Shown: one piece after another, positions 2,447 through 8,295 of the stretch | Position numbering within the stretch: position 1 is the first letter of the stretch | How the letters are laid out: the number at the start of each line of letters is the position of its first letter | NCBI GenBank assembly: GCA_945836835.1 | Contig: CAMAML010000001.1 | Location: 1-25,094 of the forward strand | DNA from: an uncultured cyanobacterium | GTDB taxonomy: Bacteria; Cyanobacteriota; Vampirovibrionia; Gastranaerophilales; Gastranaerophilaceae | Direction: 5' to 3' | DNA: 25,094 bases | The notes under the pieces: generated by a model | The model's input: only the letters and a program-made list of their open reading frames with translations | Databases searched by the model: none | Told to the model about the DNA's origin: nothing | Position numbers and translations under genes: made by a program

Positions 2447-3415
2447 ATGGAATTAAAAATTAAATGCGTTAATACTACAACAAGTTCAGACGGTTCTCAA
2501 TACGGAAAGTTCGTTATTGAACCTTTGGAAAAAGGGTTTGGTACGACAATCGGGAACTCTTTAAGACGCGTACTTTTGTCAAGTCTTGAAGGAACAGCCG
2601 TTACATCCGCAAGAATAGAAGGTATTACTCACGAATACACCGCTATTCCGGGCGTATTGGAAGACGTTATCGACGTAATGTTGAACTTGAAGGGGTTGGT
2701 TGTAAAGACCGATTCCAATGAACCTCAACATTTGCGTATAGACGTTGACAAACCGGGTGCTGTACTTGCCGGTGATATTCAATTACCTGCGGGCGTAAAA
2801 GTTGTAAACCCTGACTGGTTGATTTGTACGGTATCGGAAGGCGGAAGTTTCCACGCAGACATTATCGTAGAAACCGGTAAAGGTTACGAACCTCATGACG
2901 TGCCTCGTGATGCAAGAGGCGTTTCTATTGACGTTTTGCCTATCGACGCAACATTTATGCCTATCAAGAGAGTCAGCTACAACGTAGAAAACACTCGTGT
3001 AGGTGATTCTATCGACTTTGACAAATTGACTTTGGAAATTTGGTCAAACGGATCAATCGAAGTTACAACCGCATTGAGCCAAGCATCCAATCTGTTAATC
3101 GACCACTTCATGCAAATAGCCGCAATCACGGGGCAGCCTGTTGTTGCACCGGTTGCACCGGTTGAAGAAGTTGTTGAGGAAACGGAAACCGTTCCGACTA
3201 TGACAATCGAAGAATTGGAGTTGTCGGTCAGAGCCTACAACTGCTTGAAAAGAGCGAGCATCAACTCAATGGCGGAATTGTTGAAGAAATCGGAACACGA
3301 TTTGTTGAACATTAAGAATTTCGGTAAAAAATCTTCCGACGAAGTAATCGAAAGACTTCACCATTTCGGATTGGACTTAGCTCCAAACCCTGAAATCGAA
3401 GAAGAAATCGGTTAA
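2447..3415 (+). CDS. rpoA: RNA polymerase alpha subunit
   Basis: IEPLEKGFGTTIGNSLRRVLLSS...GVLEDV...DATFMPIKRVSYNVENTRVG; alpha-CTD IEELELSVRAYNCLKRA...IKNFGKKS. Confidence 0.99.
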   Translation: MELKIKCVNTTTSSDGSQYGKFVIEPLEKGFGTTIGNSLRRVLLSSLEGTAVTSARIEGITHEYTAIPGVLEDVIDVMLNLKGLVVKTDSNEPQHLRIDVDKPGAVLAGDIQLPAGVKVVNPDWLICTVSEGGSFHADIIVETGKGYEPHDVPRDARGVSIDVLPIDATFMPIKRVSYNVENTRVGDSIDFDKLTLEIWSNGSIEVTTALSQASNLLIDHFMQIAAITGQPVVAPVAPVEEVVEETETVPTMTIEELELSVRAYNCLKRASINSMAELLKKSEHDLLNIKNFGKKSSDEVIERLHHFGLDLAPNPEIEEEIG

Positions 3416-3470: not shown

Positions 3471-3899
3471 ATGAGACACATGACAAAAAAACATACGCTA
3501 AGCAAGGCAAAGGATCAAAGAGATGCCCTGTTGCGTGCATTGGCTACTGAACTTTTTGTACATGGTGAAATCAAAACGACAATGGCAAGAGCAAAAGCTT
3601 TGAAACCATATGCCGAAGCGATTATCACACTTGCTAAAAGAGGCGATTTGCACGCAATTCGTCAAGCGGCAAGACACATTTACAACAAAGAAACGGGCAA
3701 ATTCATCGACCTTAAGACGGGCGAAGTATTTGACGAAGCAGTTGCCGATAAAAAGTTAGCACCGCAAACGGTTTTGAGAAAGTTGTTTGTGGTAATCGGA
3801 AAGAACTACACCGACAGAAAAGGCGGATACACAAGAATTTTCAGACTTCCGCCACGTCGCGGTGATGCTTCCGAAATGGCTTTAATCCAGTTGGTATAA
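3471..3899 (+). CDS. rplQ: 50S ribosomal protein L17 with an internal insertion
   Basis: MRH...IKTTMARAKALK...IITLAK...VLRKLF...YTDRKGGYTRI...RRGDASEMALIQLV. Confidence 0.98.
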   Translation: MRHMTKKHTLSKAKDQRDALLRALATELFVHGEIKTTMARAKALKPYAEAIITLAKRGDLHAIRQAARHIYNKETGKFIDLKTGEVFDEAVADKKLAPQTVLRKLFVVIGKNYTDRKGGYTRIFRLPPRRGDASEMALIQLV

Positions 3900-4744: not shown

Positions 4745-5182
4745 ATGAAAACATATTCAGCAAAACCTCTACAAGTTGAAAGAAAATGGTATTTGATTGA
4801 TGCCGAAGGCGAAGTATTAGGTCGCTTGGCAACAAGAATTGCCAACATCTTGAGAGGAAAGAATAAACCTGAATACACCCCAAACGTTGACACGGGCGAC
4901 TTTGTTGTTGTAATCAACGCAGAAAAGGTTGTAGTTTCGGGTAAAAAAGAAACAGACAAAATCTATTTGCACCACACGGGTTATCCGGGCGGTTTGAAGA
5001 GTGCGTCTTTCAAGGAATTGATGGAAAAAGACGGCACTTTGGCTTTGACAAAGGCTGTAAAGGGCATGCTCCCTCACAACACTTTGGGTGCTGAACAGTT
5101 GACCAAGTTGAAGGTTTACGCAGGTCCGGAACATCCTCACGCAGCTCAAAAACCAATCGTTTTAGAAAAGGAGGCTAAATAA
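4745..5182 (+). CDS. rplM: 50S ribosomal protein L13
   Basis: [17 protein letters not shown]...[27 protein letters not shown]...VKGMLP...[16 protein letters not shown]. Confidence 0.99.
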
Positions 5183-5577
5183 TGGCAGATAAAGAAATTA
5201 TGGCAACAGGCCGTAGAAAGACTTCTATCGCAGTTGTTAAGCTGGTAAAAGGCAAAGGCAGAATTTTCGTAAACGGAAAGACTTTGAGAAACTACATCGG
5301 CAACAGACCTGCCGTTGAGATGTTGGTTTACAGACCGCTTGTTTTGACCGACAACCAAGAAAATTATGATGTCAGAGTAAAAGCAATCGGCGGCGGTGTT
5401 GTTTCGCAATGCGGTGCAATCAGACACGGTATCTCAAGAGCTTTGGTAAAAGCTAACGAAGAATACAGAAACGTATTAAGAATGGAAGGGTTGTTGACTC
5501 GTGACCCTAGGGTTAAAGAACGTAAGAAATACGGTAGAAAACGTGCAAGAAAACGTTTCCAATTCTCAAAACGTTAA
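5182..5577 (+). CDS. rpsI: 30S ribosomal protein S9
   Basis: ATGRRKTSIA...GGGVVSQCGAIRHGISRAL...LLTRDPRVKERKKYG...ARKRFQFSKR; TAATG overlap with rplM. Confidence 0.99.
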   Translation: MADKEIMATGRRKTSIAVVKLVKGKGRIFVNGKTLRNYIGNRPAVEMLVYRPLVLTDNQENYDVRVKAIGGGVVSQCGAIRHGISRALVKANEEYRNVLRMEGLLTRDPRVKERKKYGRKRARKRFQFSKR

Positions 5578-5612
5578 TCGAAATTGCCTATTGTTTGGCA
5601 AAAACAGGAAAG

Positions 5613-5646
5613 AAAAGCGAACCGTTTTCAGCGGTTCGCTTTTTTT
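5613..5646 (+). terminator. Intrinsic terminator of the ribosomal cluster, potentially bidirectional
   Basis: AAAAGCGAACCG-TTTTCAG-CGGTTCGCTTTT, with the T-run continuing to 5646. Confidence 0.9.
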
Positions 5647-5669
5647 GTAGGAAAAATTACACATTCATC

Positions 5670-5698
5670 TTGACATGGGATTTTGTTTCAGGTAAGAT
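5670..5698 (+). promoter_or_regulatory. Sigma70 promoter for the Met-rich leader
   Basis: Perfect TTGACA (5670-5675), exactly 17 nt, TAAGAT (5693-5698); predicted TSS near 5705. Confidence 0.8.
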
Positions 5699-5724
5699 TT
5701 TTGACGTAAGCAATTAAAAGGATA

Positions 5725-5820
5725 ATGATTTTGAAAAACGGTTCGACAAAAATGATGTCTATGGCTATGATGAGCATGCAAATGATGATGTGCATGCTGG
5801 CTTTGACGTGTCGAATGTGA
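5725..5820 (+). CDS. Met-rich short peptide, putative attenuator leader peptide; not in the ORF track
   Basis: MILKNGSTKMMSMAMMSMQMMMCMLALTCRM* has 12 Met in 31 aa. AAGGA SD at 5718-5722 is 8 nt from the in-frame TTG at 5731 (alternative start MKNGSTK...). Lies between a promoter and a terminator. Confidence 0.7.
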   Translation: MILKNGSTKMMSMAMMSMQMMMCMLALTCRM

Positions 5821-5847
5821 GTTTTTTGATTTACATAAGATGTTGTT

Positions 5848-5884
5848 AAAGTCGGATTTGAAGATTTTCAAGTCCGACTTTTTT
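5848..5884 (+). terminator. Intrinsic terminator, putative attenuator
   Basis: 15-bp stem AAAGTCGGATTTGAA (5848-5862), loop GATT, TTCAAGTCCGACTTT (5867-5881), then further Ts; 35 nt before the next start codon. Confidence 0.85.
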
Positions 5885-5919
5885 ATTGAGTACGAGTTTT
5901 TAAAAGGAATTATGAAGAA

Positions 5920-7257
5920 ATGACTATAAATTTAGATTTAAACAGACCACAGAACCATACTAATTTTTCTTTTGGGGCAAACCCTAATCCCAAAAGGCTT
6001 TCACGTGAATTAACGGAAAATTTAAGTAGAGGGCAAAAGTTTTTGTCCAAAGTTATCGATTTGAAGGAGGGTGATTCGGGGCTTTCACATTCAAGGTTTG
6101 CACAAGCTACTTTGACAAACTGGTTTCCGAAAGCGATTTTTTCAAGAAGTATTGCGGACTTGTCCGAGGTAACGTTTTTGGAGGTAATGGAAGGAGCGTT
6201 GTTCTTCTATTTGCCATCGATAGTCGGGGAGCATTTGTCGAGGCGAAAGATTTTTAACAAATTTTTGCCAAAAGAACTTCATGACAGCGTTTCCAAACCC
6301 GTTGCAGCTATTGTGAAGGAGGGCGGGAAAAACGCACAAAAATTACTTCCCGTAAAGGCTGCTATCGTGTTAAGTTGTGCGGCAATTCCGGCAGCGGAGT
6401 ACGGGTTAAGTTTTGCAAAAAACCTTTTTACGCTGAAGGTTTTCAAGAAGGCGGATTTTACTTCGGTTGTGAACCTCGACAAGAGCAAAAAGGTTGATGA
6501 AAAGACTTCACAGGAAAGAGTTGAGAAGAGTGCTAAATCTCATCTTAAAAAAGTCGGAATTTTTTCAGGGTTAACTTTTGCAAGCAGCTTGCTTTTGGGG
6601 ACTTTAGGGCAGAAGAGCAAGGGGGTAGCGAAGGCATGCGAATATTTCTTAAACCCCGGTGAGAAGTTATACAAGGGGCTTTCCAAGGTGGGGGTAAATT
6701 CGCAAAAGCTCGAAAAATTTTTGAACAAGTACCTTAACCTCGATTTTGCAAGAAAATCCGACGGCGGACTGGCTCTCGGGCATGGTCAGCTTGCGGTGAC
6801 TGTTTTGGCGGGCGTTAAGGGGTATTTCGACGCGGCACACGACAGGGGAAAACTTGATGTACAGGAAGTTGCGACAAGGGTGCCGATTATTGCTCTTTAT
6901 ACGATTTTTGGAAGTGCTTTGTTTGACGAAGGATTTAAAAACCTGCTTTACAAGAATAAAAAGTACGCCGATATTCTAACCAAAAACGAGAAAACGGGCG
7001 AGTTTAGGGTTGCGGGATTGGATGAAATTCCTGAAATTGCCAAACGCAAGGTAAATTCTACGGACAAGCAGGCGATGGAAAAAGAGGTTCAAAAGTTGTT
7101 TAAGGGAAAAGCCGTAATTTCACTGGTTCCGTTCCTGTTCAGCCTCGGGGTTGTCGGGGCATTATTATCCCTTGTCAGCAGAATTTGGACACAACACAGA
7201 TACGACAAGTTGCAGGCACAAAAAGCAGGGAACAATCAACTTAAAACAGGTGCCTAA
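5920..7257 (+). CDS. Hypothetical multi-helix membrane-associated protein (445 aa)
   Basis: Long ORF with SD AAGGA, about 5-6 hydrophobic Gly/Ala-rich segments, no Sec signal peptide, no family recognised. Confidence 0.8.
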   Translation: MTINLDLNRPQNHTNFSFGANPNPKRLSRELTENLSRGQKFLSKVIDLKEGDSGLSHSRFAQATLTNWFPKAIFSRSIADLSEVTFLEVMEGALFFYLPSIVGEHLSRRKIFNKFLPKELHDSVSKPVAAIVKEGGKNAQKLLPVKAAIVLSCAAIPAAEYGLSFAKNLFTLKVFKKADFTSVVNLDKSKKVDEKTSQERVEKSAKSHLKKVGIFSGLTFASSLLLGTLGQKSKGVAKACEYFLNPGEKLYKGLSKVGVNSQKLEKFLNKYLNLDFARKSDGGLALGHGQLAVTVLAGVKGYFDAAHDRGKLDVQEVATRVPIIALYTIFGSALFDEGFKNLLYKNKKYADILTKNEKTGEFRVAGLDEIPEIAKRKVNSTDKQAMEKEVQKLFKGKAVISLVPFLFSLGVVGALLSLVSRIWTQHRYDKLQAQKAGNNQLKTGA

Positions 7258-7350: not shown

Positions 7351-8295
7351 ATGAAAGTTAGTGTAAAAGTACCGGCAACCATCGCAAACATCGGACCGGG
7401 GTTTGACTGCCTCGGATTGGCAGTCCCGATATATAATACGATTACCATTGAAGAAACCGTACTTCCGGGGACTGGGGTTGAGATAAACGTCTTGGCAAGC
7501 GAAGATTTGACGGACGAATTATCACTCGAACATATCCAGATGGACGAAAACAGTATTATTTACAAGGCGGTTGAGCTTTTGTACAATTCAATCGGACAAA
7601 CTCCGAGCGAATTAAAGATTACCATACACTCGGAAATCCCTATTGCAAAAGGCTTAGGAAGCAGTGCATCGGTAATCGTGGGCGGATTGATTGCTGCAAA
7701 CGAGCTTTTGGGACACCCTGCGGATGAGGCGGCTCTACTGTCAATCGCAACCGAGGTTGAAGGACATCCTGACAACATTACGCCTGCAATAGTCGGCGGA
7801 ATTGTGATTTCGTCAAGCGAAGATGACGGGAGCATTATTTACAGAAAATTAAACTGGCCCGAAGATTGGGTTTTAACTGTAGTCATCCCTGATTACGAGC
7901 TTGCTACGGAAATCTCAAGATCGGTGTTGCCTAAAGAAGTTCCGATGAAGGATGCGGTCTTTAACCTTCAAAGAATGGCTATGTTTACGACGGCATTGGC
8001 AAACAAAGATGCGGAATTGATGAAATTAGCCCTGAAGGATAAACTTCACCAACCGTACAGACAAAAACTCGTGCCGGGGTTTGACAAGATTACGGAAAAA
8101 CTTAAGCACGAGGACTCGGTTATGGGTTGTGTTTTGAGCGGAGCAGGACCTTCCGTTCTTGTAATTTCTCAAAAGAACGGTGCGGACAAGGTTCGAGAAA
8201 TCATCAAAGAAACTTGGAAAGATTTGGATATTAACGTTAAAGTTGTAACCCTCCCAATCGAGCAGAACGGTGCAAAAGTCGTCAGTGTAGTGTAA
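7351..8295 (+). CDS. thrB: Homoserine kinase (GHMP family)
   Basis: VPATIANIGPGFDCLGLA, PIAKGLGSSAS (GHMP P-loop), EGHPDN, DKLHQPYR, LSGAGPS. Confidence 0.97.
   Translation: MKVSVKVPATIANIGPGFDCLGLAVPIYNTITIEETVLPGTGVEINVLASEDLTDELSLEHIQMDENSIIYKAVELLYNSIGQTPSELKITIHSEIPIAKGLGSSASVIVGGLIAANELLGHPADEAALLSIATEVEGHPDNITPAIVGGIVISSSEDDGSIIYRKLNWPEDWVLTVVIPDYELATEISRSVLPKEVPMKDAVFNLQRMAMFTTALANKDAELMKLALKDKLHQPYRQKLVPGFDKITEKLKHEDSVMGCVLSGAGPSVLVISQKNGADKVREIIKETWKDLDINVKVVTLPIEQNGAKVVSVV

Follow-up and report, generated by a model that had tools for sequence, protein, structure and literature searches.

A putative methionine-codon leader-peptide attenuator in front of an orphan membrane protein gene of Gastranaerophilales

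Here, we describe a short leader region within a 25,094-nucleotide stretch of DNA (contig CAMAML010000001.1; this whole stretch is referred to as the window) from an uncultured member of the order Gastranaerophilales. The leader lies upstream of a gene for a 445-amino-acid (aa) membrane protein, and it is very likely a ribosome-mediated (leader-peptide) transcription attenuator that responds to the translation of methionine codons. The case for this mechanism is built on sequence, covariation and amino acid composition. The source genome is an 85%-complete metagenome-assembled genome of the Gastranaerophilales (Melainabacteria), with an assembly size of 1.46 Mb.

In the mechanism that we propose, transcription would begin at the leader's own promoter, near position 5705, and a ribosome would translate a leader open reading frame (ORF) of 29 to 31 codons. 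With Met-tRNA plentiful, the ribosome would reach the stop codon (5818-5820) and cover or split the ORF tail (5797-5815); with the tail blocked, the terminator (5848-5884) would form and the transcript would end short of the gene. With Met-tRNA scarce, the ribosome would instead stall in the run of Met codons (5752-5796), leaving the ORF tail free to pair with 5844-5855. This pairing would remove the base of the terminator stem beside the U tract and allow RNA polymerase to read into the 445-aa gene. Translation of the leader, stalling of the ribosome and the response to starvation are what we infer from the arrangement of the following elements, and the signal read by the leader is most likely the supply of charged elongator tRNA-Met.

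5670-5698, plus strand: sigma-70-type promoter, TTGACA (5670-5675), 17 nucleotides (nt), TAAGAT (5693-5698), with 10/12 consensus matches
5719-5723, plus strand: Shine-Dalgarno-like AAGGA, recognized from the sequence, within an AGGAAA block conserved in genus alignment A1
5725-5820, plus strand: leader ORF, 31 codons when read from ATG 5725, with stop codon TGA at 5818-5820
5752-5796, plus strand: regulatory Met run, 10 Met in 15 codons (codons 10-24)
5774-5797, plus strand: inner hairpin in the Met run (GCAUGCA...UGCAUGC), a candidate pause or protector element from the RNAalifold consensus
5797-5808, plus strand: antiterminator 5' strand (segment 2) within the ORF tail, predicted from folding, covariation and geometry
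5812-5817, plus strand: CGA-AUG (Arg-Met) just 5' of the stop codon
5844-5855, plus strand: antiterminator 3' strand (segment 3), overlapping the base of the terminator 5' arm, predicted from folding and covariation
5848-5884, plus strand: intrinsic terminator (hairpin 5848-5881; segments 3:4), 15-base-pair stem, loop of 4, followed by a T run
5920-7257, plus strand: regulated gene, coding for a 445-aa orphan membrane protein with 5-6 hydrophobic segments, of a Melainabacteria-specific family

An original prediction, made from the window alone, had named the TTGACA-17-TAAGAT promoter, a Shine-Dalgarno sequence with a 31-codon ORF containing 12 ATG codons, the crowding of 10 of these into codons 10-24, and the 15-base-pair terminator at 5848-5881. 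Each of these elements is present where it had been placed, and comparison with relatives suggests a later start for the ORF. TTGACA is invariant in the 12 relatives of the genus alignment (A1), and 68 of 73 loci have an exact TTGACA 134-152 nt 5' of the leader stop codon (background, 0.1 per 200 nt). Translated from 5725 to 5820, the leader reads MILKNGSTKMMSMAMMSMQMMMCMLALTCRM and has 12 Met codons. In the genus alignment, a TTG or ATG is conserved at the position of window nucleotide 5731, 7 nt after the AGGA block. The conserved leader start is thus probably TTG 5731, which lies 7 nt past AAGGA and gives 29 codons, rather than ATG 5725. The reading frame of this putative ORF, judged by sequence only, is conserved together with its stop codon, and its insertions and deletions are multiples of three.

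The original prediction had also proposed a search of related genomes for short Met-rich ORFs followed by terminators. Related genomes show a recurring unit composed of a TTGACA promoter, a Shine-Dalgarno sequence, a Met-run ORF of 24-33 codons, an intrinsic terminator and a gene for a membrane protein of about 445 aa. We used the downstream protein as the query against species-representative genomes and obtained 80 loci. A Met-dense upstream ORF was found at 72 of these, and at four the available upstream sequence was too short to show a leader. Two further loci, L043 and L044, have leaders (MKNNQVITTAMMMCSMHNLCRLCFSSRM) with a shorter Met run that falls under the Met-density threshold; when they are counted, the Met run is kept at 74 of the 76 loci with sufficient upstream DNA. 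The core MMMQMMM(M) is retained across the order Gastranaerophilales, and a typical peptide of the wider 80-locus set reads ...NNTMMMQMMMMQSLxxGGHCxxNRMC. Among genomes of the same genus, 12 of 16 gave a DNA match to the leader, with the Met-coding part 85-90% identical and with peptides such as MNMMAMMSMQMMMCMPTLACRM. The loss of Met codons or of the alternative helix at homologous loci, which had been named as grounds for rejecting the prediction, did not occur. At two loci (L063 and L091, at about 2700-3000) the leader, LPSYKSILIMQDTIMCSL, has decayed: most of its Met codons are now ATA or ATT (Ile), and the U tract of the terminator is weak. Regulation may have been lost there, or its specificity may have shifted. 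At L047 (about 2650-3000) and L111 (about 1100-1490; genome G029), two Met leaders, MNSVSKTNNMMSMMMQSMFVNDRLSLFLQK and then MNNKYKNMMTMMMGCMCLTCRPGLFFRM, stand in tandem, each with a terminator, in front of one gene.

ATG makes up 1.2% of trinucleotides, and the 1.46-Mb assembly contains no other Met-dense short ORF, all further matches lying within genes. These two facts, together with conservation in dozens of genomes, show that the Met-run arrangement is not due to chance. Being the sole Met-dense short ORF of the assembly, the leader is specific to the 445-aa gene. The genes rpsI, thrB and dnaE, which are neighbours in the window, are conserved as neighbours at none of the 80 related loci, and the conserved unit therefore consists of the leader and the 445-aa gene.

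At the RNA level, the leader holds two mutually exclusive structures. A strict terminator is located 16-32 nt past the leader stop codon at 65 loci, and its hairpin has an energy of -18.4 kcal/mol in this window. The ORF tail is a near copy of the terminator 3' arm and can therefore pair with the terminator 5' arm, which gives the 12-base-pair alternative helix (5797-5808 with 5844-5855) that had been predicted. Folding of 5700-5890 yielded a minimum free energy of -52.7 kcal/mol (z = -4.0 compared to shuffled sequences). The minimum free energy fold contains the core of the antiterminator (5799-5808 with 5843-5852), and the centroid fold contains the full terminator; thus, the two competing structures are real and nearly equal in energy.

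Covariation supports both the antiterminator and the terminator. In alignment A1, 86.8% of the antiterminator cells are paired, with double changes in 5 pairs, compared to 19-49% in slid controls. In one genome, for instance, UCAGCUUUA in the ORF is matched by UAAAGCUGA, and in others CCGACUUUA is matched by UAAAGCCGG. In an alignment of 41 leaders of the larger clade (A4), the 8-pair core of the antiterminator is 94.4% paired with 35 double-change cells, compared to 27-65% paired in slid controls, and its covariation score was reached by 0 of 500 shuffles. The terminator is 90.6% paired in the same alignment, with 54 double-change cells; the antiterminator covaries as well as the terminator does. 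Across the 65 loci, pairing between an ORF tail and the terminator arm of the same leader has an energy of -15.65 kcal/mol, compared to -10.76 with foreign arms and -8.36 for shuffled tails. Among the covarying positions of the ORF are the third base of a Gly codon, where the change is synonymous, and a site at which Gly is replaced by Ser, which argues that the RNA pairing is conserved and the peptide gives way to it.

The spacing of these elements suits a ribosome as the switching agent and is like that of the trp, his and thr attenuators, as had been proposed. On average, the antiterminator strand starts 28 nt and ends 9 nt before the stop codon. Of the 8.4 internal Met codons of an average leader, 6.9 are separated from this strand by 13 nt or more on its upstream side. 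With an assumed ribosome footprint of -15 to +12 nt around the A site, a ribosome stalled at these codons would therefore leave the antiterminator strand free, and one that has reached the stop codon would sit on the 3' half of the strand and keep the two strands apart. The energies of the two structures are similar, at -16.5 kcal/mol for the antiterminator and -15.7 kcal/mol for the terminator. In equilibrium folding, both free RNA and RNA with a ribosome at the stop codon form the terminator at 55 of 65 loci.

Amino acid composition of the regulated protein points in the same direction. The 445-aa protein has two internal Met in 445 residues, which corresponds to the 1.4th percentile of the long ORFs of the genome, and among 70 family members Met accounts for a mean of 0.71% of residues, compared to 2.24% in the genome. 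Biosynthetic enzymes are known for a cognate bias, and on this ground a low content of Met is to be expected in a protein whose synthesis is required under Met shortage. Relatives of the protein occur in Candidatus Melainabacteria of the order Gastranaerophilales from gut and rumen. The protein matched no Pfam or NCBIfam entry. Its AlphaFold model is all-helical (predicted local distance difference test score, 83.8), and comparisons of the model with the PDB, AFDB clusters (Foldseek), VIA-align wide and the ESM Atlas returned matches to its own family only. A likeness to the type-IV ABC membrane domain or SbmA (Z 5-6.5) was below the noise level of helical bundles and was not used. The N-terminus of the protein, encoded at 5920-5990 of the window, reads MTIN...NFSFGA, and a micro-ORF (ATG-AAG-AAA-TGA, 5912-5923) overlaps the start codon of its gene.

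Paralogues of the regulated gene provide a comparison with a second amino acid. A profile of the 445-aa family revealed a second tier of paralogues in many Gastranaerophilales (L115-L117, L119-L138 and L143-L162), and in all 20 of the upstream regions fetched for them there is a short ORF with WW or WWW, for example MNYIQQNKTQNWWWLQKRAGTFCWR and MNKINLLNLNFSWWRL, often ending in FCWR or LSWQ. A strict terminator follows in 17 of the 20. As with the Met leaders, the tail pairs best with its own arm (-15.9 kcal/mol, compared to -12.1 with foreign arms and -6.6 for shuffled tails). The Trp-type proteins contain no Trp at all in 19 of 20 cases (0.01% Trp compared to 0.69% in the genome) and have 1.45% Met, and the Met-type proteins have a near-normal Trp content of 0.56%. 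This reciprocal pattern, in which a Met run precedes a Met-poor protein and a Trp run precedes a Trp-free one, is what amino-acid-specific sensing predicts. We placed 24 Met-type proteins (one row in three of alignment A3) in a tree together with the 20 Trp-type proteins and four distant relatives that have no leader. The Met-type proteins form a single clade (100/100) nested in a Trp-type grade. By this topology, the Met type would stem from a duplicated Trp-type ancestor whose leader was re-coded to Met, an order of events that depends on the outgroup rooting. The distant relatives (L139-L142; 352-365 aa, 43-57 bits) lie within operons directly behind another gene, have no leader and are nearly Trp-free (0-1 Trp). 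A search for leaders with a His run (six CAY codons) in five genomes matched only a coding low-complexity stretch. On the minus strand of contig C119 of genome G000, near 3611, a short ORF that begins with MKNLIKITATTTNTTVSTVSF... is followed by a T run and may represent a threonine-type leader elsewhere in this genome.

The same data bear on explanations other than methionine sensing by a translating ribosome. The leader could be an attenuator that senses translation and answers to a different signal, so that a general slowdown or a ribosome-targeting antibiotic induces a transporter or efflux protein. An upstream ORF combined with an antiterminator and a terminator is also the layout of the drug-induced ermC, bmrCD and vmlR leaders, and the target here is a membrane protein with a sub-threshold likeness to ABC-exporter membrane domains. 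Drug-sensing leaders need no run of a single codon, however, and no feature of the present leader is better conserved across the order than its Met run; moreover, the target protein is specifically Met-poor, and the paralogues combine Trp runs with Trp-free proteins. We therefore regard a non-methionine signal as improbable.

It is even less probable that the short ORF codes for a functional Met/Cys-rich peptide, either metal-binding or the precursor of a ribosomally synthesized and post-translationally modified peptide, which would have its own terminator and a separately expressed downstream partner. The peptide tail changes freely (PTLACRM, SALSCRM, LALTCRM, GGHCxxNRMC, SGSHYLLRM) together with the terminator arm, even though other parts of the peptide (MQMMMC, two Cys and the C-terminal R-M) are conserved. 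Met-rich motifs bind Cu(I), a property that would suit a metal-binding peptide. Nevertheless, modifying enzymes are not conserved nearby, NCBIfam gives no match for the leader peptide, and the paralogues have Trp-run leaders of the classical type. In addition, the promoter scan found no promoter-like site between the terminator and the gene at 5920, as the original prediction had stated. Least probable of all is that the AUG triplets, whose spacing of three nt superficially resembles the (G/U)AG repeats bound by TRAP, form an RNA site for a TRAP-like attenuation protein that chooses the structure in place of the ribosome, given that the Met run is always in frame with a Shine-Dalgarno-preceded start and with a stop codon whose spacing to the terminator is fixed, that leader indels are multiples of three, that the interspersed codons vary while the frame is kept, and that the paralogues swap AUG for UGG within the same ORF architecture.

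Several observations weigh against a methionine-responsive attenuator or against parts of its proposed mechanism. Equilibrium folding with the ribosome footprint masked, a check proposed with the original prediction, gave the expected switch of structure at only 31 of 65 loci; the others would have to rely on kinetic trapping during transcription, as attenuators usually do. The predicted protector (1:2) helix between 5742-5748 and 5809-5815 exists in this window but is only 67% paired in the 12 relatives of alignment A1, and a short 1:2 hairpin beside the Met run, although 82% paired in alignment A4, shows covariation no better than that of shuffles. The inner hairpin at 5774-5797 is 99% paired, with one G-C to A-U double change, and is conserved only in the clade of the window. 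A further difficulty lies at the end of the ORF, where one Met codon abuts the stop codon or sits one codon earlier, and a stall at this position would favour termination. At 61 of 73 loci the leader ends with CGA-AUG-stop or CGA-AUG-UGU-stop. CGA is used less than any other Arg codon in this genome (7.9%), and a complementary CAUUCG was not found elsewhere in the leaders; the proposed switch does not explain the terminal Met codon and the invariant CGA before it. Three public RNA runs covered only conserved ribosomal protein genes and nothing over 5618-5913, and they are uninformative on transcription of the leader. Finally, the target has no assignable function or fold, so that the logic by which an attenuator controls the supply of its cognate amino acid cannot be closed.

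Leader-peptide attenuation has been described for Trp, His, Thr, Leu, Ile/Val and Phe, and Met genes are generally assigned to control by MetJ, S-box riboswitches, T-boxes or protein regulators. The closest parallels to the leader described here are trpL-trp and hisL-his of E. coli and Salmonella, which likewise have a short leader with a run of cognate codons and an antiterminator (2:3) that excludes the terminator (3:4). In these systems a stall at the codon run frees segment 2, as is proposed here, and the Trp-type paralogues use tandem WW as trpL does. Apart from the 1:2 helix, the structural features that we tested, as predicted from the sequence, are those of trp/his attenuators. The differences are that the leader would sense methionine, that its target is a single orphan membrane protein instead of a biosynthetic operon, that the host is a non-photosynthetic relative of cyanobacteria, and that the 1:2 element is a candidate one.

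In Gram-positive bacteria, the RNA elements that usually regulate Met genes are S-box (SAM-I) riboswitches and Met T-boxes. Both share with the leader a pair of competing antiterminator and terminator structures and an attenuation of transcription by methionine status; here, however, no such fold was detected, and the proposed sensor is the translating ribosome reading charged tRNA-Met, instead of S-adenosylmethionine or uncharged tRNA. Rfam models of leaders, riboswitches and T-boxes (Trp, His, Thr, Leu and Phe_leader, SAM and T-box) gave no match at gathering score in the window, and at E-values up to 10 over 5500-6000 there were only chance-level matches, such as Phe_leader with 15.6 bits (threshold 55) on the end of rpsI. 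Mycobacterial polycysteine short ORFs (bioRxiv 10.1101/834739) are reportedly leaderless, cysteine-responsive attenuators. Like the leader studied here, these ORFs would place codons for a sulfur-containing amino acid in a short ORF that controls downstream genes by supply; by what is said of them, they differ from the Shine-Dalgarno-led ORF with Met codons and a covarying terminator and antiterminator found in Gastranaerophilales. Naville and Gautheret (2010; PMC2965389) described His leader peptides before hisS/hisZ paralogues in bacilli, and no Met case. That work resembles ours in that comparative genomics placed an attenuator outside Proteobacteria and on paralogous genes, and differs in the amino acid and the target. 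Full-text literature searches found no published methionine leader-peptide attenuator and nothing relevant on Gastranaerophilales and methionine.

The unit is bounded on its 5' side by the end of a ribosomal protein operon.

5182-5577, upstream of the unit: S9 gene (rpsI)
5613-5643, strand not assigned: hairpin terminator of the rplM-rpsI operon with a 12-pair stem, from the terminator scan; 5' boundary of the unit

The S9 gene ends in its own terminator, and the leader unit therefore has its own promoter. On the other side, the homoserine kinase gene thrB (7351-8295) begins 93 nt past the 445-aa gene, with no terminator or promoter predicted between them. We considered thrB as the regulated target and rejected it, given that it adjoins the 445-aa gene at none of the 80 related loci. 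In this genome alone, thrB may share a transcript with the 445-aa gene and so fall under the Met attenuator.

What the leader may mean for its host depends on how these bacteria obtain methionine and tryptophan. We searched five genomes (G000, G002, G029, G050 and G061), including three with a completeness of at least 98% and one that consists of a single chromosome. The searches detected neither MetE nor MetQ nor the homocysteine methyltransferase domain of MetH in any of the five, and they detected MetK, the positive control, in four. True pyridoxal-phosphate enzymes of Cys/Met metabolism were present in only two of the five, and TrpA in only one. These gene contents suggest Met auxotrophy, mostly accompanied by Trp auxotrophy, without the usual Met ABC importer. 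These bacteria probably need an outside supply of Met, and most of them also one of Trp, which makes an uptake role plausible for both types of protein. It is tempting to speculate that the 445-aa protein is a methionine importer in a methionine auxotroph, an assignment that we hold at somewhat less than even chances. Equally tentative is the broader idea that the orphan family of about 400-460 aa comprises new amino-acid-specific uptake or scavenging proteins whose substrate can be read from the leader, with the Met type derived from a duplicated Trp-type ancestor and with Met joining the amino acids sensed by attenuation.

A Met version of leader-peptide attenuation in a lineage related to cyanobacteria would widen both the chemistry and the taxonomic range of this mode of control. 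The leader would further serve as a functional tag, by which one clade of genes would be called for under Met shortage and its sister genes under Trp shortage. In this way, a family that has no Pfam domain, annotation or structural relative becomes a testable candidate for a new type of amino acid transporter in gut bacteria that cannot yet be grown. The Met/Trp pair also suggests how the specificity of an attenuator may change, by the re-coding of a few codons after gene duplication.

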